Source: Escherichia coli (GTDB taxonomy: Bacteria > Pseudomonadota > Gammaproteobacteria > Enterobacterales > Enterobacteriaceae). From it: 64,000 bases of DNA. Shown here in pieces: positions 4,900 through 21,559 of the stretch. The notes beneath the pieces are model-generated. The model did no database searches and had not been told where the DNA came from. It saw only the letters and a program-made list of their open reading frames with translations. The translations under genes were made by a program, and so were the position numbers. Every line of letters starts with the position of its first letter. The stretch's first letter is position 1. The stretch lies in assembly GCF_044324875.1 (NCBI RefSeq), contig NZ_CP172185.1. One strand, 5' to 3'.

Positions 4900-5053
4900 C
4901 GAAAAATTCCTGTAGTCGAAAATGTCAAAAATATCGCGACAAAGTACTCGCGACGGGCCTTTCGGGCAAGTGGTATTCGCACTTTTGCTGGTGCAAAAAA
5001 GGTGGTACTGTGCGCGCTCATCAATCCGGTGGTTAACCTTAAGAGAACAACGT

Positions 5054-5308: not shown

Positions 5309-6486
5309 ACATCTTTAATCCGCAGTAAGCAAAACAGAGTGGCGATAATCATCACCATCGCAAACCAGAACACAGCGTGATAATTCCAGATCTCGGCGAC
5401 GATGCCCGCCACTGATCCTGCGATGATCCAGCCCACGCGCGACGTGTTGGTATAGAGCGTGGTGGCTGAACCTGCCTGACCGGGCATCAAATCCTGAAAA
5501 TAGAGCATCCCGATGCCACCCAGAATGCCAATAAAAATAGCATTTAGCAGCTGCAAGCCCAACAGAATGGCAGGTGAATGCGCCATCAGCATTCCTGCGT
5601 AAAAACAGACGCCACCCACGGCAGCAACGCGCATTAAGAAGCGCTTACCCAGACGTTTGGCGAAATATCCGGCAATCAACATGGTCGGGATTTCCAGCCC
5701 GGCGGCGGTCCCCATCATCACACCGGCCAGTTTCTCGGGAAGATGCAGTTCGTTGATAATAAATAGCGGCATGTTGATGATGTACAGGCTGTTCGAGCCC
5801 CACATCAATGTACAAATGACAAACAGCAGCAGCGTATCGCGACGGTTACGGCGCGGCGCTTCAACCGTGCCGGTCGCCAGCGGAAGTTCTTTTTGCATTG
5901 ACGGTAAAAACAGCCACACCATCACGCCGCAAACAATAAACGCTACCGCTGCGCTCAGATACATTACCGTAAAGCTGAAACCCATCGCTAAGGCATAAGC
6001 CAGCGGCGGGCCAATGACCCATGCCAGTGAAACCTGAGCACGTAAAAAAGAGCTGAACATCACCGCTTCACGTCCGGTTTTGTCAGCATGTTCACGGGCA
6101 AGGGCAAACATTTGCGGGTTAGCGGTCGAGCCAAAGCTGCTAAGAAAGACGCCAACGAATAGCAAAACAAAGTAGTTGCGATTCCAGGCAAAAAGGGTGC
6201 AGGCCAGCACGCCTAACAGGCAGCAAAAGACAATCAGCGATTTGCGATCGCCGCGCTTATCAGAGCGCCCGGCGAGAAACTGACTGACCAGAATCCCAAT
6301 GACAGCGCTGCCGGTAAAGAAGAATCCCACCATCGCTGGACGGGCATGTACTTCATCGGTAAGAAAAATGCTGAGTGTCGGGGTTTGCAGAGCGCCCGCA
6401 ATACCGGTGAGAAAGGCAACGATTAAAAACGCCGTCGAGGTCAGATCAAACGATTTCGCGCTGGAGACTGCGGGGGAGTTATGCAT
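5305..6486 (-). CDS. setB: MFS sugar efflux transporter
   Basis: 393 aa, 12-TM MFS-like, [28 protein letters not shown]... Confidence 0.88.
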
Positions 6487-7984: not shown

Positions 7985-8922
7985 TGAGCAGACGTGTTGC
8001 TACTATCACCCTTAATCCGGCTTATGACCTTGTTGGTTTCTGCCCGGAAATTGAACGCGGCGAAGTGAACCTGGTGAAAACCACCGGTCTGCATGCGGCG
8101 GGTAAAGGCATCAACGTGGCCAAAGTATTAAAAGACCTGGGAATTGATGTCACCGTTGGCGGCTTCCTCGGTAAAGACAATCAGGATGGTTTTCAGCAAC
8201 TGTTCAGCGAGCTGGGCATTGCCAACCGTTTCCAGGTTGTACAGGGGCGCACCCGAATTAACGTTAAGCTGACGGAAAAAGACGGCGAAGTGACCGACTT
8301 CAACTTCTCGGGTTTTGAAGTCACTCCCGCCGACTGGGAACGCTTTGTGACTGATTCTCTGAGCTGGCTCGGTCAGTTCGATATGGTCTGTGTCAGCGGA
8401 AGCTTACCGTCAGGCGTCAGCCCGGAAGCGTTCACCGACTGGATGACTCGCCTGCGTAGTCAGTGTCCTTGCATTATCTTTGATAGTAGCCGTGAAGCGT
8501 TAGTAGCAGGTTTGAAAGCGGCACCGTGGCTGGTGAAACCTAACCGCCGCGAGCTGGAAATCTGGGCAGGCCGTAAACTGCCTGAAATGAAAGATGTGAT
8601 TGAAGCTGCGCATGCGCTGCGTGAACAAGGTATCGCGCATGTCGTTATTTCACTGGGTGCCGAAGGCGCGCTTTGGGTTAATGCCTCCGGCGAATGGATC
8701 GCCAAACCACCGTCAGTCGATGTCGTAAGCACCGTTGGCGCAGGGGATTCTATGGTTGGTGGCCTGATTTATGGCTTGCTGATGCGTGAATCCAGTGAAC
8801 ACACACTGCGTCTGGCGACAGCTGTTGCAGCCCTGGCGGTAAGTCAAAGCAATGTGGGTATTACCGATCGTCCGCAGTTGGCCGCAATGATGGCGCGCGT
8901 CGACTTACAACCTTTTAACTGA
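7984..8922 (+). CDS. fruK: 1-phosphofructokinase
   Basis: 312 aa pfkB-family kinase; start overlaps fruB stop (ATAATG). Confidence 0.93.
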   Translation: MSRRVATITLNPAYDLVGFCPEIERGEVNLVKTTGLHAAGKGINVAKVLKDLGIDVTVGGFLGKDNQDGFQQLFSELGIANRFQVVQGRTRINVKLTEKDGEVTDFNFSGFEVTPADWERFVTDSLSWLGQFDMVCVSGSLPSGVSPEAFTDWMTRLRSQCPCIIFDSSREALVAGLKAAPWLVKPNRRELEIWAGRKLPEMKDVIEAAHALREQGIAHVVISLGAEGALWVNASGEWIAKPPSVDVVSTVGAGDSMVGGLIYGLLMRESSEHTLRLATAVAALAVSQSNVGITDRPQLAAMMARVDLQPFN

Positions 8923-8938: not shown

Positions 8939-10630
8939 ATGAAAACGCTGCTGATTATTGACGCTAATCTCGGTCAGGCACGCGCCTATATGGCGAAGAC
9001 CCTGCTGGGCGCGGCGGCGCGAAAAGCAAAACTGGAAATCATCGACAATCCGAACGACGCTGAAATGGCGATTGTTCTCGGTGATTCCATCCCGAACGAC
9101 AGCGCGCTGAACGGTAAAAATGTCTGGCTGGGCGATATTTCCCGGGCAGTTGCGCACCCTGAGCTGTTCCTGAGTGAAGCCAAAGGCCATGCGAAACCTT
9201 ACACTGCGCCGGTCGCTGCGACAGCACCGGTTGCCGCCAGCGGTCCGAAACGCGTAGTTGCGGTGACTGCTTGCCCGACTGGCGTAGCACACACCTTTAT
9301 GGCGGCTGAAGCCATTGAAACCGAAGCGAAAAAACGTGGCTGGTGGGTGAAAGTTGAAACCCGTGGTTCTGTTGGCGCGGGTAATGCAATCACTCCCGAA
9401 GAAGTCGCAGCAGCGGATCTGGTGATTGTGGCGGCAGATATCGAAGTGGATCTGGCGAAATTTGCTGGTAAACCGATGTATCGCACCTCTACCGGTCTGG
9501 CGCTGAAGAAAACCGCGCAGGAACTGGATAAAGCGGTTGCTGAAGCAACGCCGTATGAACCGGCGGGCAAAACTCAAACAGCGACCACTGAAGGTAAGAA
9601 AGAGAGTGCAGGCGCTTATCGTCACTTGCTGACGGGCGTCTCTTACATGCTGCCGATGGTCGTTGCAGGTGGTCTGTGTATCGCGCTTTCTTTTGCTTTT
9701 GGTATCGAAGCGTTTAAAGAGCCGGGTACGTTGGCAGCGGCGCTGATGCAGATTGGTGGTGGTTCAGCCTTTGCGCTGATGGTGCCGGTACTGGCAGGTT
9801 ATATTGCCTTCTCCATTGCCGATCGTCCGGGCCTCACGCCGGGTCTGATTGGCGGTATGCTGGCGGTCAGCACTGGTTCTGGCTTCATTGGCGGTATTAT
9901 TGCGGGCTTCCTGGCTGGTTACATTGCGAAGTTAATCAGTACGCAATTGAAACTGCCACAGAGTATGGAGGCGCTGAAACCGATTCTGATCATTCCGCTA
10001 ATTTCCAGTCTGGTGGTCGGTCTGGCGATGATCTACCTGATCGGTAAACCGGTTGCTGGCATTCTCGAAGGGTTGACTCACTGGCTGCAGACCATGGGGA
10101 CTGCGAATGCGGTTCTGCTGGGGGCGATCCTCGGTGGCATGATGTGTGCTGACATGGGCGGTCCGGTAAACAAAGCAGCGTACGCATTCGGTGTGGGTCT
10201 GCTGAGTACTCAAACCTATGGCCCGATGGCGGCGATTATGGCGGCAGGTATGGTGCCACCGCTGGCAATGGGCCTGGCAACAATGGTGGCGCGTCGCAAA
10301 TTCGACAAAGCGCAGCAGGAAGGGGGCAAAGCCGCTCTGGTACTGGGACTGTGCTTTATTTCGGAAGGTGCAATTCCGTTTGCTGCTCGTGATCCGATGC
10401 GTGTGCTGCCGTGCTGTATCGTGGGTGGGGCGCTGACTGGCGCAATCTCAATGGCGATTGGTGCGAAACTGATGGCACCGCACGGTGGTCTGTTTGTTCT
10501 GCTGATCCCTGGCGCGATTACGCCGGTATTGGGTTACCTGGTAGCCATTATTGCCGGTACGCTGGTGGCGGGTCTGGCCTATGCCTTCCTGAAACGTCCG
10601 GAAGTGGACGCAGTAGCGAAAGCAGCGTAA
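8939..10630 (+). CDS. fruA: PTS fructose-specific IIB'BC component
   Basis: 563 aa, N-terminal IIB domains then multi-TM IIC. Confidence 0.93.
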   Translation: MKTLLIIDANLGQARAYMAKTLLGAAARKAKLEIIDNPNDAEMAIVLGDSIPNDSALNGKNVWLGDISRAVAHPELFLSEAKGHAKPYTAPVAATAPVAASGPKRVVAVTACPTGVAHTFMAAEAIETEAKKRGWWVKVETRGSVGAGNAITPEEVAAADLVIVAADIEVDLAKFAGKPMYRTSTGLALKKTAQELDKAVAEATPYEPAGKTQTATTEGKKESAGAYRHLLTGVSYMLPMVVAGGLCIALSFAFGIEAFKEPGTLAAALMQIGGGSAFALMVPVLAGYIAFSIADRPGLTPGLIGGMLAVSTGSGFIGGIIAGFLAGYIAKLISTQLKLPQSMEALKPILIIPLISSLVVGLAMIYLIGKPVAGILEGLTHWLQTMGTANAVLLGAILGGMMCADMGGPVNKAAYAFGVGLLSTQTYGPMAAIMAAGMVPPLAMGLATMVARRKFDKAQQEGGKAALVLGLCFISEGAIPFAARDPMRVLPCCIVGGALTGAISMAIGAKLMAPHGGLFVLLIPGAITPVLGYLVAIIAGTLVAGLAYAFLKRPEVDAVAKAA

Positions 10631-10640
10631 TAAAAGGTGT

Positions 10641-10671
10641 GTTACAGGGCAGAAATTTCCTGCCCTGTAAC
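10641..10671 (+). terminator. Perfect 12-bp-stem hairpin immediately after fruA stop
   Basis: gttacagggcag-aaatttc-ctgccctgtaac. Confidence 0.5.
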
Positions 10672-10787
10672 ATTTGATGCGCGCAAAGAGAATGACCGGT
10701 TTGTGAATGTAATTTTATGAATTTAAATGGTTTTATCTTTTAGTAGAAACCTGAAACCTTCATCAAACACTAAGGTTATTTCCTCAA

Positions 10788-10814
10788 GGGCAGATTAATT
10801 TCTGCCCTTTTTTA
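10788..10814 (+). terminator. Rho-independent terminator-like hairpin plus T-tract
   Basis: gggcagattaatttctgccc followed by ttttttatt. Confidence 0.6.
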
Positions 10815-11053
10815 TTGTTCCTGTTCTGTGCATCCCGTCACAAATTCCCCGTTTTTATAATTCAGGCATTTAATCGCGTTTTGTGAGCCTGCTCAAATCT
10901 GCCCATTTTGCCTCTCTGGCGGTAATTTACTTTACGTAAAACATGCATACTATGAGCACATGTTTAAATATGAACACATGTTTAAACCGTCTTTGCAGTA
11001 TCTATATTCTTGTGGATTGACAGGGTGGGTAATTTTTTACCAGAGGACGTGCT

Positions 11054-11995
11054 ATGCGCGAAAAGGATTATGTCGTAATTATAGGTTCGGCGAATATTGA
11101 TATCGCCGGATATTCACATGAATCATTAAATTATGCGGATTCAAATCCAGGTAAAATAAAATTTACGCCTGGTGGAGTCGGGCGAAATATTGCACAAAAC
11201 CTGGCGTTGCTGGGTAACAAAGCCTGGCTACTGAGCGCAGTAGGCAGTGATTTTTATGGTCAATCGCTGCTAACGCAAACCAATCAATCTGGCGTTTATG
11301 TCGATAAATGCCTGATTGTGCCGGGAGAAAATACGTCGAGCTATTTATCATTACTCGATAATACCGGTGAAATGCTGGTTGCTATAAATGACATGAATAT
11401 TAGCAACGCTATTACAGCTGAATATCTCGCACAGCACCGTGAATTTATTCAAAGGGCAAAGGTCATTGTCGCGGACTGTAATATCAGTGAAGAGACACTG
11501 GCATGGATTCTGGATAATGCCGCCAATGTACCTGTATTTGTCGATCCGGTTTCGGCATGGAAATGTGTCAAAGTGCGTGACCGTCTAAATCAGATCCACA
11601 CCCTGAAGCCAAACCGCCTTGAAGCGGAAACCTTGAGTGGGATTGCTTTGTCAGGGCGTGAAGATGTGGCAAAAGTTGCTGCCTGGTTCCATCAACATGG
11701 CCTGAACCGACTGGTAATGAGCATGGGCGGCGACGGCGTTTATTACAGTGATATCAGCGGTGAAAGTGGTTGGTCTGCGCCGATCAAAACCAATGTCATT
11801 AATGTTACCGGAGCGGGCGATGCCATGATGGCGGGACTTGCTTCGTGTTGGGTAGACGGAATGCCGTTTGCCGAATCTGTTCGTTTCGCACAGGGATGTT
11901 CGTCAATGGCGCTCTCCTGTGAATACACCAATAACCCCGATTTATCGATTGCCAACGTTATATCGTTAGTGGAGAACGCAGAATGTCTGAATTAA
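11054..11995 (+). CDS. psuK: Pseudouridine kinase (pfkB family)
   Basis: 313 aa MREKDYVVIIGSANIDIAG... Confidence 0.88.
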   Translation: MREKDYVVIIGSANIDIAGYSHESLNYADSNPGKIKFTPGGVGRNIAQNLALLGNKAWLLSAVGSDFYGQSLLTQTNQSGVYVDKCLIVPGENTSSYLSLLDNTGEMLVAINDMNISNAITAEYLAQHREFIQRAKVIVADCNISEETLAWILDNAANVPVFVDPVSAWKCVKVRDRLNQIHTLKPNRLEAETLSGIALSGREDVAKVAAWFHQHGLNRLVMSMGGDGVYYSDISGESGWSAPIKTNVINVTGAGDAMMAGLASCWVDGMPFAESVRFAQGCSSMALSCEYTNNPDLSIANVISLVENAECLN

Positions 11996-12921
11996 AAATT
12001 TCCCCTGAATTATTACAAATTTCCCCGGAAGTGCAGGACGCTTTAAAAAACAAAAAACCGGTTGTGGCGCTGGAATCGACCATTATTTCTCACGGGATGC
12101 CGTTCCCACAAAATGCCCAGACCGCAATTGAAGTTGAAGAAACTATTCGTAAACAGGGCGCTGTACCTGCCACTATCGCCATTATTGGCGGCGTGATGAA
12201 AGTGGGTTTAAGCAAAGAAGAAATTGAATTGCTGGGTCGTGAAGGGCATAACGTGACCAAAGTTAGTCGTCGCGATTTACCTTTTGTTGTTGCCGCCGGA
12301 AAAAATGGCGCAACTACCGTTGCTTCAACGATGATTATTGCGGCGCTTGCCGGAATTAAAGTATTTGCCACTGGGGGAATTGGTGGTGTGCATCGCGGGG
12401 CGGAACATACCTTCGATATTTCTGCCGATTTGCAAGAACTGGCGCACACCAATGTCACCGTCGTTTGTGCCGGGGCGAAATCTATTCTCGATTTAGGCTT
12501 AACTACCGAATATTTAGAAACTTTCGGTGTACCGCTAATTGGCTATCAGACCAAAGCGCTGCCTGCGTTTTTCTGCCGCACCAGCCCGTTTGAAGTCAGT
12601 ATTCGCCTTGATAGTGCCACGGAAATCGCTCGTGCAATGGCGGTGAAATGGCAAAGCGGTCTGAACGGTGGCCTGGTGGTGGCGAATCCGATCCCGGAAC
12701 AGTTTGCGATGCCGGAGGAATCTATCAATGCAGCCATAGATCAAGCCGTCGCCGAAGCCGAAGAGCAGGGCGTTATTGGTAAAGAAAGTACGCCATTCCT
12801 GCTGGCGCGCGTTGCTGAGCTGACCGGCGGTGACAGCCTGAAATCCAACATCCAGCTGGTGTTCAACAACGCCATTCTGGCGAGCGAAATTGCCAAAGAA
12901 TATCAGCGTCTCGCGGGTTAA
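11983..12921 (+). CDS. psuG: Pseudouridine-5'-phosphate glycosidase
   Basis: 312 aa MSELKISPELLQISPEVQDALKNKKPVVALESTIISHGMP...; overlaps psuK by 13 nt. Confidence 0.88.
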   Translation: MSELKISPELLQISPEVQDALKNKKPVVALESTIISHGMPFPQNAQTAIEVEETIRKQGAVPATIAIIGGVMKVGLSKEEIELLGREGHNVTKVSRRDLPFVVAAGKNGATTVASTMIIAALAGIKVFATGGIGGVHRGAEHTFDISADLQELAHTNVTVVCAGAKSILDLGLTTEYLETFGVPLIGYQTKALPAFFCRTSPFEVSIRLDSATEIARAMAVKWQSGLNGGLVVANPIPEQFAMPEESINAAIDQAVAEAEEQGVIGKESTPFLLARVAELTGGDSLKSNIQLVFNNAILASEIAKEYQRLAG

Positions 12922-13014
12922 TTTCTGACGGGCAGAAAGCCGTCGCCCGTACTCATCAAGCATACCAAAACCTGGCGCTGACGCCGGGTTTACTGGCATG
13001 AAGGGAAAATCATT

Positions 13015-14265
13015 ATGGATATAATGAGAAGTGTTGTGGGGATGGTGGTGTTACTGGCAATAGCATTTCTGTTGTCAGTGAATAAAAAGGGCATCAGTTT
13101 GCGCACGGTTGGAGCCGCACTGCTGCTGCAAATCGCTATTGGTGGCATCATGCTCTACTTCCCACCGGGAAAATGGGCAGTAGAACAGGCGGCATTAGGC
13201 GTTCATAAAGTGATGTCTTACAGTGATGCCGGTAGCGCCTTTATTTTTGGTTCATTGGTCGGGCCGAAAATGGATGTCCTGTTTGATGGCGCGGGCTTTA
13301 TCTTCGCCTTTCGCGTACTCCCGGCGATTATCTTCGTCACTGCGCTCATCAGCCTGCTGTACTACATTGGCGTGATGGGACTGCTGATTCGCATTCTTGG
13401 CAGCATTTTCCAGAAAGCTCTCAACATCAGCAAAATCGAATCTTTTGTTGCGGTTACCACTATTTTCCTCGGGCAAAATGAGATCCCGGCGATCGTTAAA
13501 CCGTTTATCGATCGCATGAATCGCAACGAGTTGTTTACCGCAATTTGTAGCGGGATGGCGTCCATTGCTGGTTCGATGATGATTGGTTATGCCGGAATGG
13601 GCGTACCAATTGACTACCTGTTAGCGGCATCGCTGATGGCGATCCCTGGCGGGATTTTGTTTGCACGTATTCTTAGCCCGGCAACCGAGCCTTCGCAGGT
13701 CACATTTGAAAATCTGTCGTTCAGCGAAACACCGCCAAAAAGCTTTATCGAAGCAGCGGCGAGCGGTGCGATGACCGGGTTGAAAATCGCCGCTGGTGTG
13801 GCGACGGTGGTAATGGCGTTTGTCGCAATTATTGCGCTGATTAATGGCATTATCGGCGGAATTGGCGGCTGGTTTGGTTTTACCAATGCTTCTCTGGAAA
13901 GTATTTTTGGCTATGTGCTGGCACCGCTGGCGTGGATCATGGGTGTGGACTGGAGTGATGCCAATCTTGCGGGTAGCCTGATTGGGCAGAAACTGGCGAT
14001 TAACGAATTCGTCGCTTACCTGAGTTTCTCCCCATACCTGCAAACGGGCGGCACGCTGGAAGTGAAAACCATTGCGATTATCTCCTTTGCGCTTTGTGGT
14101 TTTGCTAACTTTGGTTCTATCGGTGTTGTCGTTGGCGCATTTTCGGCTATTTCGCCTAAACGCGCACCGGAAATCGCCCTGCTTGGTTTACGGGCGCTGG
14201 CAGCAGCAACGCTTTCCAACCTGATGAGCGCGACCATTGCCGGGTTCTTTATTGGTTTAGCTTGA
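13015..14265 (+). CDS. psuT: NupC-family nucleoside transporter
   Basis: 416 aa multi-TM; close paralog of nupX in this window. Confidence 0.88.
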   Translation: MDIMRSVVGMVVLLAIAFLLSVNKKGISLRTVGAALLLQIAIGGIMLYFPPGKWAVEQAALGVHKVMSYSDAGSAFIFGSLVGPKMDVLFDGAGFIFAFRVLPAIIFVTALISLLYYIGVMGLLIRILGSIFQKALNISKIESFVAVTTIFLGQNEIPAIVKPFIDRMNRNELFTAICSGMASIAGSMMIGYAGMGVPIDYLLAASLMAIPGGILFARILSPATEPSQVTFENLSFSETPPKSFIEAAASGAMTGLKIAAGVATVVMAFVAIIALINGIIGGIGGWFGFTNASLESIFGYVLAPLAWIMGVDWSDANLAGSLIGQKLAINEFVAYLSFSPYLQTGGTLEVKTIAIISFALCGFANFGSIGVVVGAFSAISPKRAPEIALLGLRALAAATLSNLMSATIAGFFIGLA

Positions 14266-17507: not shown

Positions 17508-18596
17508 TTACACCATCGGCACTAATGAAAGCGCGTTATCGGCAGACAGGGTAGGGTTGTTTAAGCTGCCGCTGGCGCGTGAAATTGCCGCGCAGGCCAT
17601 CGCAAAACGGGCGCTGTCACGGAAATTGTTTCCCTCCAGAAAGCTATATACCAGGCCCGCCATAAAACCATCGTCAGCACCAAAACTGTCTACTGTCGTA
17701 TGCGCTGGCGCTGTCAGCAAAAATTGCTCTCCATCCTTTTCGCTGCAATAAACTGACTCATCGGGCAAATAAACAAACAGTTGCTGAACGCCTTGCTGAT
17801 GCAACGCATTCACTGCGGCATTACGGTCAGCATCGCTGGTGATCGCCTGTCCCCATAAAATTTCCAGCTCCGGTAAAGTGGGTTTCAGGGTGTGAATATG
17901 CGCCAGCCAGTGTTTGATTTTGCCCGCTTTGAATTCTGAAACGGTATCGACAAACACCGGGATTTCATCAGCGAGGGTAAAGACCCACTCCAGCGCCTCG
18001 GCTGTCAGGTTGCAATCAGCCAGTACCACGCCCGCATGACGAAGTAAATCGCGCGACCCGTTCAGTAGTTGCGGTGTCAACTGATCCAGCAGATGGGTAT
18101 CGTTAATCGCCAGCACGATTTGATCGTCTCGATCGGCAATTGCCAGATACGTCGATGTGCTTTGGCCATGTAAACGAACGCAGCCGGAGACATTCACGCC
18201 GGCGCGGCGCGTTTCTTCCAGGAGCATTTCGCCATAAAAGTCATCGCCAATCACTGAAAGCAAATGGACGTCGCGGCCTAACAGCGCCAGATTGTGGGCG
18301 ATATTGCGTCCAACGCCGCCTGCCGAGCAATGAATGGTACCGGGATGAGAAGCCGCTTGCGGGTAACGGATATCCGCCATCCCGCGAATATCCATATTGA
18401 TTGTCCCCACCACTACGCAGTATTCCTGCTCGGTGAGAATGTAACCTTTGCCTTTAATCCGACCTTTGCGCATTAAATCCATAATATGCGCCGCAACGCG
18501 CGAACGGCTGATTTGCAGCATATCAGCAATTTCGTTCTGCTGAATCAGCGGGTTACGCCGTAAAATTGCAAGGATCTCCTTCTCCCGGTTGTTCAT
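17508..18596 (-). CDS. yeiI: Putative sugar/nucleoside kinase with N-terminal HTH (pfkB family)
   Basis: 362 aa; kinase domain paralogous to psuK. Confidence 0.82.
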   Translation of the reverse strand: MNNREKEILAILRRNPLIQQNEIADMLQISRSRVAAHIMDLMRKGRIKGKGYILTEQEYCVVVGTINMDIRGMADIRYPQAASHPGTIHCSAGGVGRNIAHNLALLGRDVHLLSVIGDDFYGEMLLEETRRAGVNVSGCVRLHGQSTSTYLAIADRDDQIVLAINDTHLLDQLTPQLLNGSRDLLRHAGVVLADCNLTAEALEWVFTLADEIPVFVDTVSEFKAGKIKHWLAHIHTLKPTLPELEILWGQAITSDADRNAAVNALHQQGVQQLFVYLPDESVYCSEKDGEQFLLTAPAHTTVDSFGADDGFMAGLVYSFLEGNNFRDSARFAMACAAISRASGSLNNPTLSADNALSLVPMV

Positions 18597-20677: not shown

Positions 20678-21559
20678 ATGCACATCACCCTCCGGCAGTT
20701 GGAAGTTTTTGCAGAAGTATTGAAAAGTGGATCAACCACCCAGGCGTCGGTGATGCTGGCGTTGTCGCAATCAGCAGTGAGCGCAGCCTTGACCGACCTG
20801 GAAGGGCAGCTTGGCGTGCAACTGTTTGATCGCGTGGGGAAAAGACTGGTAGTTAATGAACACGGGCGACTGCTCTATCCGCGTGCGTTGGCACTGCTTG
20901 AACAGGCGATCGAAATCGAACAACTGTTTCGCGAAGACAACGGTGCGATTCGTATCTATGCCAGTAGTACCATCGGTAACTACATTCTGCCTGCAGTCAT
21001 TGCCCGTTATCGCCATGATTATCCGCAGTTGCCGATTGAACTTAGCGTTGGGAACAGCCAGGACGTGATGCAAGCGGTGCTGGATTTCCGCGTTGATATT
21101 GGCTTTATTGAAGGACCGTGCCACAGCACTGAAATCATTTCTGAACCGTGGCTGGAAGACGAGCTGGTGGTTTTCGCCGCGCCGACTTCGCCATTGGCTC
21201 GTGGTCCGGTCACCTTAGAACAGCTGGCCGCTGCGCCGTGGATCCTGCGTGAACGCGGCTCCGGCACGCGGGAGATTGTCGATTATCTGTTGCTGTCACA
21301 TTTACCGAAGTTTGAGATGGCGATGGAATTAGGTAACTCCGAGGCAATCAAACATGCGGTGCGTCATGGGTTGGGAATTAGTTGCCTGTCGCGGCGGGTG
21401 ATTGAAGATCAATTGCAGGCAGGCACATTAAGTGAAGTTGCGGTCCCTCTGCCGCGCCTGATGCGTACGTTGTGGCGTATACATCATCGGCAAAAACACC
21501 TTTCCAACGCGCTACGGCGCTTTCTGGACTATTGCGATCCCGCGAATGTACCGCGTTAA
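20678..21559 (+). CDS. yeiE: LysR-type transcriptional regulator
   Basis: 293 aa, N-terminal HTH; divergent from yeiH. Confidence 0.88.

Follow-up and report, generated by a model that had tools for sequence, protein, structure and literature searches.

Paired palindromes in the psuK promoter region

This study concerns a short repeat in the spacer between fruA and psuK, within a 64-kb stretch of Escherichia coli DNA that we refer to as the window. The genes of the locus run in the order fruA (8939 to 10630), psuK, psuG and psuT, all on the plus strand, followed by yeiL (minus strand), rihB, nupX, yeiI (minus strand) and nfo; in E. coli, nupX, rihB and yeiL thus sit between psuT and yeiI. The identity of psuK was confirmed by an NCBIfam equivalog match (713 bits), and the identities of fruA, the NupC-type psuT and yeiL were confirmed likewise. 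The fruA-psuK spacer is 96.7% identical to that of K-12-type strains, and the strain itself is E. coli but not K-12. The literature searched contained no regulator or binding site for psuKGT and no measured psuK start site. The features on which the analysis turns are the following.

10879 to 10900 (core 10882 to 10897), no strand assigned: CRP-like site TGTGA-GCCTGC-TCAAA, centred at about -70.5, class-I-like
10926 to 10931, plus strand: -35 hexamer TTTACT, invariant across genera, with an adaptive single-nucleotide polymorphism (SNP) at 10928
10948 to 10953, plus strand: -10 hexamer TACTAT, separated from the -35 by a 16-nt spacer and abutting operator unit 1
10951 to 10986, no strand assigned: 18-bp tandem repeat in two copies, holding both 12-mers and assessed with a chance test
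10954 to 10965, no strand assigned: putative operator unit 1, GAGCA-CA-TGTTT, at about -6 to +6 of the predicted start (13-promoter alignment and matrix scans)
10960, plus strand: predicted transcription start, at an A, placed from the -10, which lies 7 nt before it
10972 to 10983, no strand assigned: putative operator unit 2, GAACA-CA-TGTTT, at about +13 to +24 (13-promoter alignment and matrix scans)
11027 to 11042, plus strand: stem-loop or palindrome (T/G)GGTAA-TTTT-TTACCA, conserved, directly 5' of the Shine-Dalgarno sequence AGAGGA
11054 to 14265, plus strand: psuKGT operon, putatively regulated (psuK 11054 to 11995, psuG 11983 to 12921, psuT 13015 to 14265)
17508 to 18596, minus strand: yeiI, encoding the candidate regulator, a PsuK paralogue with an HTH_24 winged helix (residues 1 to 48) and a PfkB kinase-like domain (residues 58 to 348)

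A first-pass annotation of the window had described two copies of a 12-nt motif, roughly 70 bp upstream of psuK, as a direct repeat of the kind expected for a dimeric regulator. Both copies of the 12-mer CACATGTTTAAA are indeed present on the plus strand (10957 to 10968 and 10975 to 10986) and nowhere else in the window. They start 18 nt apart, leaving a gap of 6 nt, and the last base of the repeat lies 68 nt upstream of the psuK ATG at 11054. The two 12-mers are parts of longer head-to-tail units of 18 bp, TATGAGCACATGTTTAAA (10951 to 10968) and TATGAACACATGTTTAAA (10969 to 10986), which are identical at 17 of 18 positions (Tandem Repeats Finder score, 65). An exact 12-mer repeated within 4 to 40 nt is not rare by chance, as it occurred in 15% of 64-kb windows simulated with a first-order Markov model. 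For an 18-mer repeated with at most one mismatch the figure was only 1 in 300, and the repeat in the psuK promoter is the single such case in the real window. Conservation is a stronger argument for function of this repeat than these chance statistics.

To define the conserved element, 11 fetched psuK loci (from Escherichia clades, E. albertii, Citrobacter, Buttiauxella and a Raoultella metagenome-assembled genome) were aligned with the window and K-12, giving 13 promoters. Four blocks are conserved among them: the CRP-like sequence TTGTGA-N6-TCAnATCT, TTTACT, TACTAT or a close variant, and the repeat region. The repeat region is better conserved than its flanks in orthologous promoters and is the best-conserved promoter block across Escherichia, Citrobacter, Buttiauxella, Raoultella and Salmonella, which supports the suggestion that an element resembling a regulator site for psuKGT lies here. 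It is made up of four TGTTC-like half-sites in alternating orientation.

Half-site 1, 10954 to 10958: GARCA, followed by the central NN
Half-site 2, 10961 to 10965: TGTTY, followed by the N6 spacer
Half-site 3, 10972 to 10976: GAACA, followed by the central NN
Half-site 4, 10979 to 10983: TGYTY

These half-sites are near-invariant in the 13 promoters, which come from five genera, and the GAACA of unit 2 is invariant in all 13; the roughly 50 nt that follow are unalignable. Variation within the element falls in the N6 spacer and the central NN, for which CA, TG, CG, TA, AA, AG, GG, TT and AT were all seen when the more distant loci described below are counted as well. The element that is conserved consists of a pair of 12-bp palindromes, RAACA-NN-TGTTY, whose centres lie 18 bp apart, and it has the conserved half-sites and variable spacer positions of a dyad-symmetric site.

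The direct repeat has a narrower distribution. The sequence of unit 2 is GAACATGTGCTC in Citrobacter, Buttiauxella and Raoultella and GAACATATGTTC in E. albertii, and the second unit takes the form GAACA(YR)TGCTC or GAACA(YR)TGTTC in one of two E. coli haplotypes (haplotype B, below), in E. albertii and in the other genera. Since the second unit differs in E. albertii and in other genera, the direct repeat is lineage-specific. The first-pass annotation had named a lack of conservation in orthologous promoters as grounds for refutation; the element passes this check in the form of its paired dyads, and the identity of the direct repeat is confined to one Escherichia haplotype. Its picture of a site for a dimeric regulator likewise stands in part: the element behaves as a protein site, but the symmetry is different, each copy being itself a 12-bp palindrome. 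Judged by sequence, two such dyads would suggest binding by a tetramer or by two dimers, and not by a single dimer on a direct repeat.

Within Escherichia, the 36-bp repeat is identical in eight aligned promoters, those of cryptic-clade isolates included, and all differences among them fall outside the -35, the -10 and the repeat. Of 3932 E. coli genomes that match a 46-bp core, 3632 do so with 100% identity. The E. coli psuK promoter nevertheless exists as two deep haplotypes. Of 5426 complete genomes, about 4220 have haplotype A, which is K-12-like and carries the perfect direct repeat. In haplotype B the promoter resembles that of E. albertii (GAACATGTGTTTAAATCTGAACACGTGCTC), psuK is divergent and nupX is reduced to a remnant. 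An apparent absence of psuK from about 1200 E. coli genomes proved to be an artefact of megablast sensitivity, as those genomes carry the divergent haplotype B. The divergence between haplotypes runs from the psuK promoter through yeiI, the DNA identity of which is either 97 to 100% or about 81%. Recombinant strains exist, such as O111:H11 88.0502, in which an A-type promoter accompanies a B-type yeiI. The two units of haplotype A are identical beyond the half-sites too (5' TAT and 3' AAA), and the perfect repeat may have arisen when a short copying or conversion event overlaid a pair of older sites. Two natural insertions of IS1 were also noted. In strain VE-T9 the element lies exactly in the 6-nt spacer between the operator units, with target duplication TAAATATG and psuK intact, and in isolate L1_E925 it lies just before the -10, with the 5' part of psuK deleted.

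Further copies were sought in the window with the 12-mer at up to two mismatches, with TGTTY-N6-GAACA and GARCA-NN-TGYTY, and with 30-mer and paired 12-mer matrices; matches elsewhere were at chance level only. The psuK promoter is the only strong paired-site match in the window. The second-best pair, at 20900 to 20929 inside the yeiE coding sequence, scored 14.5 to 17.2 bits, compared with about 33 to 34 bits for the psuK operator. Only the second unit of that pair, GAACAACTGTTT, is good, and about one such 12-mer is expected by chance per window.

The promoter and an adaptive mutation

The element does not lie upstream of the promoter; it begins right after the conserved -10 and covers the predicted start site. 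Unit 1 is directly preceded by the -10-like hexamer in E. coli (TACTAT), in Salmonella (TACAGT) and in Affinibrenneria. The pairing TTTACT-16-TACTAT agrees with the sigma-70 consensus at 8 of 12 positions, slightly below the threshold of the promoter scan, which reported TTTAAA-16-TATATT (10981 to 11008) instead. With a start near 10960, the two units would span about -6 to +24 and the leader would be about 94 nt long. We infer from this placement in the sequence that the operator occupies the position of a repressor site.

Upstream, the sequence TTGTGA...TCAnATCT is invariant in the 13 promoters and is also present in Salmonella and Affinibrenneria. No published assignment of psuK to CRP was found in the literature searched, and psuK is not in the main-text CRP table of one in vitro footprinting preprint. 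Affinibrenneria (locus 8350 to 8650, minus strand) has a psuK leader of about 280 nt, lengthened by inserted GC-rich repeats that separate the operator pair from the start codon; upstream of these insertions, both units, the -10, TTTACT and the CRP-like site are intact.

The -35 hexamer can be related to a mutation known from experimental evolution. We take the offset between the two versions of the MG1655 sequence at the psuK locus to be 1978 bp, a value that agrees with the change in total length. With this assumed offset, position 2257444 of NC_000913.2 becomes 2259422 of NC_000913.3, which lies 126 nt 5' of the psuK ATG and is an A on the K-12 plus strand. There is no indel between this position and the ATG, and it maps to position 10928 of the window, where an A-to-C change reads T to G on the psuK strand and converts TTTACT to TTGACT. 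Precisely this intergenic psuK/fruA change (A to C at NC_000913.2 position 2257444) has been reported as recurrent in mouse-colonising E. coli and as altering growth (PMC7518454, PMC9509342). An A-to-C change in the psuK promoter also arose in parallel in three of four populations kept in long-term stationary phase for 1200 days (PMC7858067). In the passages of these papers that deal with it, the psuK/fruA SNP is called a promoter-region mutation and is not read as a change to a -35. Because a recurrent, specific and consensus-improving SNP falls in TTTACT, we regard that hexamer as the working -35.

Occurrence of the site with HTH-PfkB genes

YeiI has been labelled an uncharacterised sugar kinase and a hypothetical transcription factor, with a kinase fold nearest to pseudouridine kinase (PMC9061257), and no paper assigning its function was found in the literature searched. 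Domain analysis confirmed that it is a fusion of HTH_24, a helix-turn-helix (HTH) domain (E = 1e-10; matches to Pfam HTH_11 were below the cutoff), with a PfkB domain. Among solved structures, the closest relative of the C-terminal domain (residues 54 to 358) is E. coli PsuK (7vkp and others; E = 3e-68). The closest to the HTH of the family is LrpA, of the Lrp/AsnC family (E = 4e-6), and the HTH profile gave weak matches to Staphylococcus aureus BirA (E = 0.012), 3cta, a riboflavin kinase with an HTH (E = 0.18), and E. coli BirA (E = 0.23). No HTH-PfkB fusion was among the solved structures matched by sequence.

A search for YeiI homologues recovered the same two-domain architecture in Enterobacterales, Pasteurellaceae, Orbaceae and Chromobacteriaceae, and across these taxa the gene lies near the psu operon. 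The yeiI orthologue lies convergent to psuT in E. albertii, Citrobacter, Buttiauxella, Raoultella, Salmonella and Affinibrenneria; in the first four, its product is 38 to 40% identical to PsuK. We call this arrangement the split type. In seven other taxa (Yersinia, Serratia, Xenorhabdus, Pasteurella, an Orbaceae genome, Aquitalea and Paludibacterium), here called the fused type, HTH-PfkB takes the place of psuK as the first gene of an operon with psuG and, in some, a nucleoside transporter gene. The fused proteins are 49 to 59% identical to PsuK and keep its motifs GAGD and DSNPG, and E. coli YeiI, at 38 to 39% identity, has GADD and ASHPG. The altered motifs of YeiI are consistent with a copy that would act as a sensor only. 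No PfkB kinase gene other than the fused one was called in the 9 to 13 kb or so around each fused-type operon, and the fused protein retains the PsuK-like motifs; it therefore probably combines the roles of enzyme and autorepressor. Throughout the family the HTH segment (ISRSxVAxHIM) shows strong conservation, in line with that of the DNA motif.

Fused-type paired sites sit directly before the HTH-PfkB start codon and have the following sequences.

Yersinia: AGACA-CA-TGTTT-AAAAAC-AAACA-AG-TGTCC
Pasteurella: AAACA-AA-AGTTG-AAAAAT-AAACA-GG-TGTTG
Orbaceae: AAACT-AA-TGTTG-AAAAAC-AAACA-GG-TGTTT
Aquitalea: AAACA-AA-TGTTT-TATGCGC-AAACA-TT-TGTTT
Paludibacterium: AAACA-AA-TGTTT-GAGTAGC-GGACA-AT-TGTTT

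As a guard against circularity, a 12-mer matrix was trained on split-type promoters of the Escherichia and Citrobacter kind only and was used to score pairs 18 to 19 bp apart over whole loci of 9 to 13 kb. This matrix placed the top pair of the locus at -32 to -34 from the true start codon in six of the seven fused-type loci, with scores of 11.7 to 30.2 bits, compared with 3.2 to 16.6 bits for the next-best pair elsewhere; a 30-mer version of the matrix was also run. It also ranked the pair upstream of psuK first in Salmonella (at -103) and Affinibrenneria (at -276). Two psuG loci that lack an HTH-PfkB neighbour had no paired site, although these are weak controls, being from distant taxa and covering about 11 kb each.

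In the betaproteobacteria Aquitalea and Paludibacterium, the spacer between the units is 7 nt rather than 6, and the central NN remains 2. Because the spacer shifts while the NN does not, the 12-bp palindrome appears to be the binding unit, of which there are two. The sole promoter-like site reported by the scan in these two loci ends 0 to 2 nt before unit 1, as in the E. coli geometry. In Yersinia (locus 6001 to 6029) and Serratia (5001 to 5029), the called ATG of the HTH-PfkB gene lies inside the operator (ACACATGTTTAAA) and gives a protein of 372 aa; alignment of the family puts the true start 28 nt downstream, for a protein of about 362 aa.

Regulation of psuKGT and competing explanations

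We consider it probable, on the strength of these sequence comparisons, that the paired palindromes are operators over the psuKGT start, that the promoter is a weak one assisted by CRP, and that YeiI is the most likely binder and repressor. The two RAACA-NN-TGTTY operators, placed right after the -10, would cover the start and the first 24 or so transcribed bases. YeiI would bind both palindromes as two dimers or as a tetramer and, when bound, would block either the binding of RNA polymerase or its escape from the promoter. We infer that the ligand is pseudouridine or its 5'-phosphate, which would bind the kinase-like domain of YeiI and cause release. CRP would supply activation at the intrinsically weak sigma-70 promoter TTTACT-16-TACTAT. 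In the many other Proteobacteria that have the HTH fused to the operon's own kinase, a single protein would probably serve as enzyme and autorepressor. In Escherichia, Citrobacter and Salmonella, the gene would have been duplicated and split into PsuK, an enzyme without an HTH, and YeiI, with an HTH and a diverged kinase domain. A broader proposal, which we hold more tentatively and give slightly less than even odds, is that HTH-PfkB proteins form a hitherto unrecognised family of pseudouridine-responsive trigger-enzyme regulators, in which the kinase is an autorepressor in Yersinia, Serratia, Pasteurella, Orbaceae and Chromobacteriaceae and the two roles have been subfunctionalised between PsuK and YeiI in Escherichia, Citrobacter and Salmonella.

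Several observations weigh against the assignment to YeiI. Were loss of YeiI to derepress psuKGT fully, yeiI knock-outs would be expected among adaptive mutations. In their accounts of this locus, the evolution papers report only the -35 SNP at psuK/fruA, and other operons adapt by loss of their repressors (frlR, dgoR, srlR and glpR). A full-text search for YeiI returned none of the evolution studies, a search that did not extend to yeiI in their supplementary mutation tables. It is possible that the promoter is limiting even when derepressed, that the gut already supplies the inducer, or that YeiI is no simple repressor. Within a unit, the half-site centres are only 7 bp apart, unusually tight for an HTH dimer. 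The best-conserved pair is the central one, TGTTT-N6-GAACA, with centres 11 bp apart, and the binding register may be that of two dimers or of a central dyad. In Xenorhabdus the fused gene is present and the matrix scan recognised no pair, and E. coli yeiI, which lies behind nfo, has no such site upstream.

Among the alternatives, the one that we take most seriously, while thinking it unlikely, is that the element is a genuine operator for a transcription factor other than YeiI, either a local regulator or a global one of the TetR type such as RutR. Conservation and promoter position indicate a protein site and do not name the protein, and adaptive evolution does not appear to hit yeiI. Breakdown of pseudouridine yields uracil, the ligand of RutR. 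The RutR box, TTGACCA-NN-TGGTCAA, has the same 5-NN-5 layout, and of its 14 specified positions the psuK motif would match about 11; where the two disagree (GACC versus GAAC), however, the psuK promoters are invariant. A factor other than YeiI would also have to accommodate the fact that the paired site tracks HTH-PfkB genes through Enterobacterales, Pasteurellaceae, Orbaceae and Chromobacteriaceae, beside their own operon, and that no other regulator gene is common to these loci. YeiL, of the CRP/FNR family, is a much less probable binder. Its gene adjoins psuT in E. coli, and the central dyad TGTTT-AAATAT-GAACA (10961 to 10976) is formally a 5-N6-5 sequence, with half-site centres 11 bp apart as in CRP sites; it comprises the best-conserved pair, and its 6-nt spacer is variable. 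However, yeiL was detected in four Escherichia loci and not in the loci of E. albertii, Citrobacter, Buttiauxella and Raoultella that keep the site, nor does it appear in the gene lists of fused-type loci. The 7-nt spacer in Aquitalea and Paludibacterium breaks the 5-N6-5 arrangement, and the outer half-sites are conserved too. No DNA motif for YeiL was found in the literature searched. Comparison with known regulator motifs, by which the first-pass annotation had proposed to check the repeat, gave no match, and the candidate binder is an uncharacterised protein. LexA (no CTG or CAG), the LacI family, DeoR, CytR and PhoP-like factors (which need an 11-bp period) appear unlikely from the spacing or sequence of their consensus sites.

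Other explanations dispense with such an operator or move the promoter, and we rank them lower again. The picture closest to the first-pass annotation has the repeat as activator sites at about -30 to -65 of the downstream promoter TTTAAA-16-TATATT (10981 to 11008), which scores 9 of 12 compared with 8 of 12 for TTTACT/TACTAT. We find this hardly credible, as the downstream promoter exists in the direct-repeat haplotype only, where its -35 is the end of unit 2, and is missing in haplotype B and in other genera; its spacer has an 11-bp deletion in SCPM-O-B-8794 (labelled E. coli), its -10 varies in others, and the adaptive SNP improves the upstream -35 instead. Still less probable is an RNA element, in which the palindromes form a 5' untranslated region (UTR) hairpin that controls stability, termination or translation. 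With a start near 10960, most of the element would be transcribed, and in the computed fold of the E. coli leader (-28.5 kcal/mol, z = -2.2) the two copies pair into an AU-rich hairpin of 11 bp; comparison across genera also predicts a consensus stem, and psuK is among the listed targets of the small RNA RprA (RIL-seq, TRIC-seq). The palindrome stem shows no compensatory changes, though, and any DNA palindrome yields such a stem. The direct-repeat haplotype has a 2x2 mismatch in the conserved register and uses a different one, and the predicted start would truncate the left arm. An Rfam search of the intergenic region gave best E-values of 0.47 to 0.71, far below gathering scores, with none over the repeat. 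At the bottom of our ranking, and very improbable indeed, is a direct repeat in the strict sense, either for a response regulator (PhoP-like, with TGTTTA twice in direct orientation) or as a neutral slippage duplication without function. The identity of the units exceeds the 12-mers, which points to a copying event. Response-regulator direct repeats have a period of 10 to 11 bp, and here the period is 18 bp and the dyads are conserved while direct-repeat identity is not, unlike sites of the PhoP, ArcA or OmpR type. Slippage without function does not fit a block that is invariant in the eight aligned Escherichia promoters while its flanks vary.

If YeiI is the repressor, one close parallel is BirA with bioO. 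BirA, like YeiI, has an N-terminal winged HTH fused to an enzyme of the same pathway and an operator overlapping the promoter of the pathway operon; it differs in being a biotin ligase rather than having a PfkB kinase fold, and bioO is one long inverted repeat, compared with two 12-bp palindromes 18 bp apart at psuK. Unlike in BirA, the roles of enzyme and regulator in E. coli are seemingly split between PsuK and YeiI. These two proteins belong to the same pathway; PsuK has no DNA-binding domain, and its GAGD and DSNPG motifs are the ones that differ in YeiI. NagC and Mlc (ROK family) and archaeal RbkR resemble YeiI in joining a sugar or vitamin kinase fold to an N-terminal HTH as the ligand sensor of a local regulon. 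Their kinase folds are those of ROK or of CTP-dependent riboflavin kinase rather than PfkB/ribokinase, and no sequence relation is detectable outside the HTH. As for promoter design, lacO with LacI, deoO with DeoR and the CytR regulon share with psuK a weak, CRP-assisted promoter, a dyad operator at or just past the start and multiple operators. The regulator family is different, and for psuK uncharacterised, and the sites of the LacI family (central CG), DeoR and CytR are dissimilar to the psuK motif. There is nothing unusual in a dyad operator over a CRP-assisted catabolic promoter as such; what stands out is the fusion of an Lrp/AsnC-like winged helix to a PfkB kinase.

The analysis yields an operator motif, a promoter model (CRP site, weak -35, -10 and a start inside the operator) and a named candidate regulator. 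If proteins of the YeiI family prove to be repressors, either derived from kinases or still active as kinases, a PfkB-fold example would join the small set of enzyme-repressors that includes BirA, NadR, RbkR and the ROK repressors, the y-gene yeiI would gain a function, and recurrent gut adaptation through a single -35 mutation would be explained. The system would also provide a pseudouridine-responsive switch, possibly useful in strains engineered for pseudouridine production.

Three further observations concern the surroundings of the operator. The stem at 11027 to 11042 has one compensatory pair (C-G in six sequences and U-A in two), and other genera have TGGCAA...TTGCCA; it is possibly a second control point in the 5' UTR, either an RNA hairpin with an effect on stability or translation, or another site for a protein. 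In recA mutants of several clinical E. coli exposed to ciprofloxacin, PsuG and PsuK rank with the most strongly reduced proteins (log2 fold change down to -6; PMC11039860). No LexA-like box is present in the psuK promoter, and the recA-dependent change might reflect indirect induction, for example by RNA breakdown that releases pseudouridine. On the 3' side of fruA lie two hairpins, at 10640 to 10672 and 10786 to 10809, with common arms (AGGGCAGA / TCTGCCCT) and 12 nt of perfect complementarity between 10646 to 10657 and 10797 to 10808. Only the second has a T-run on the plus strand; the first scores as a minus-strand terminator, and no converging gene is present there. The pair could be a long structured 3' UTR of fruA or could bound a small transcript between the hairpins.

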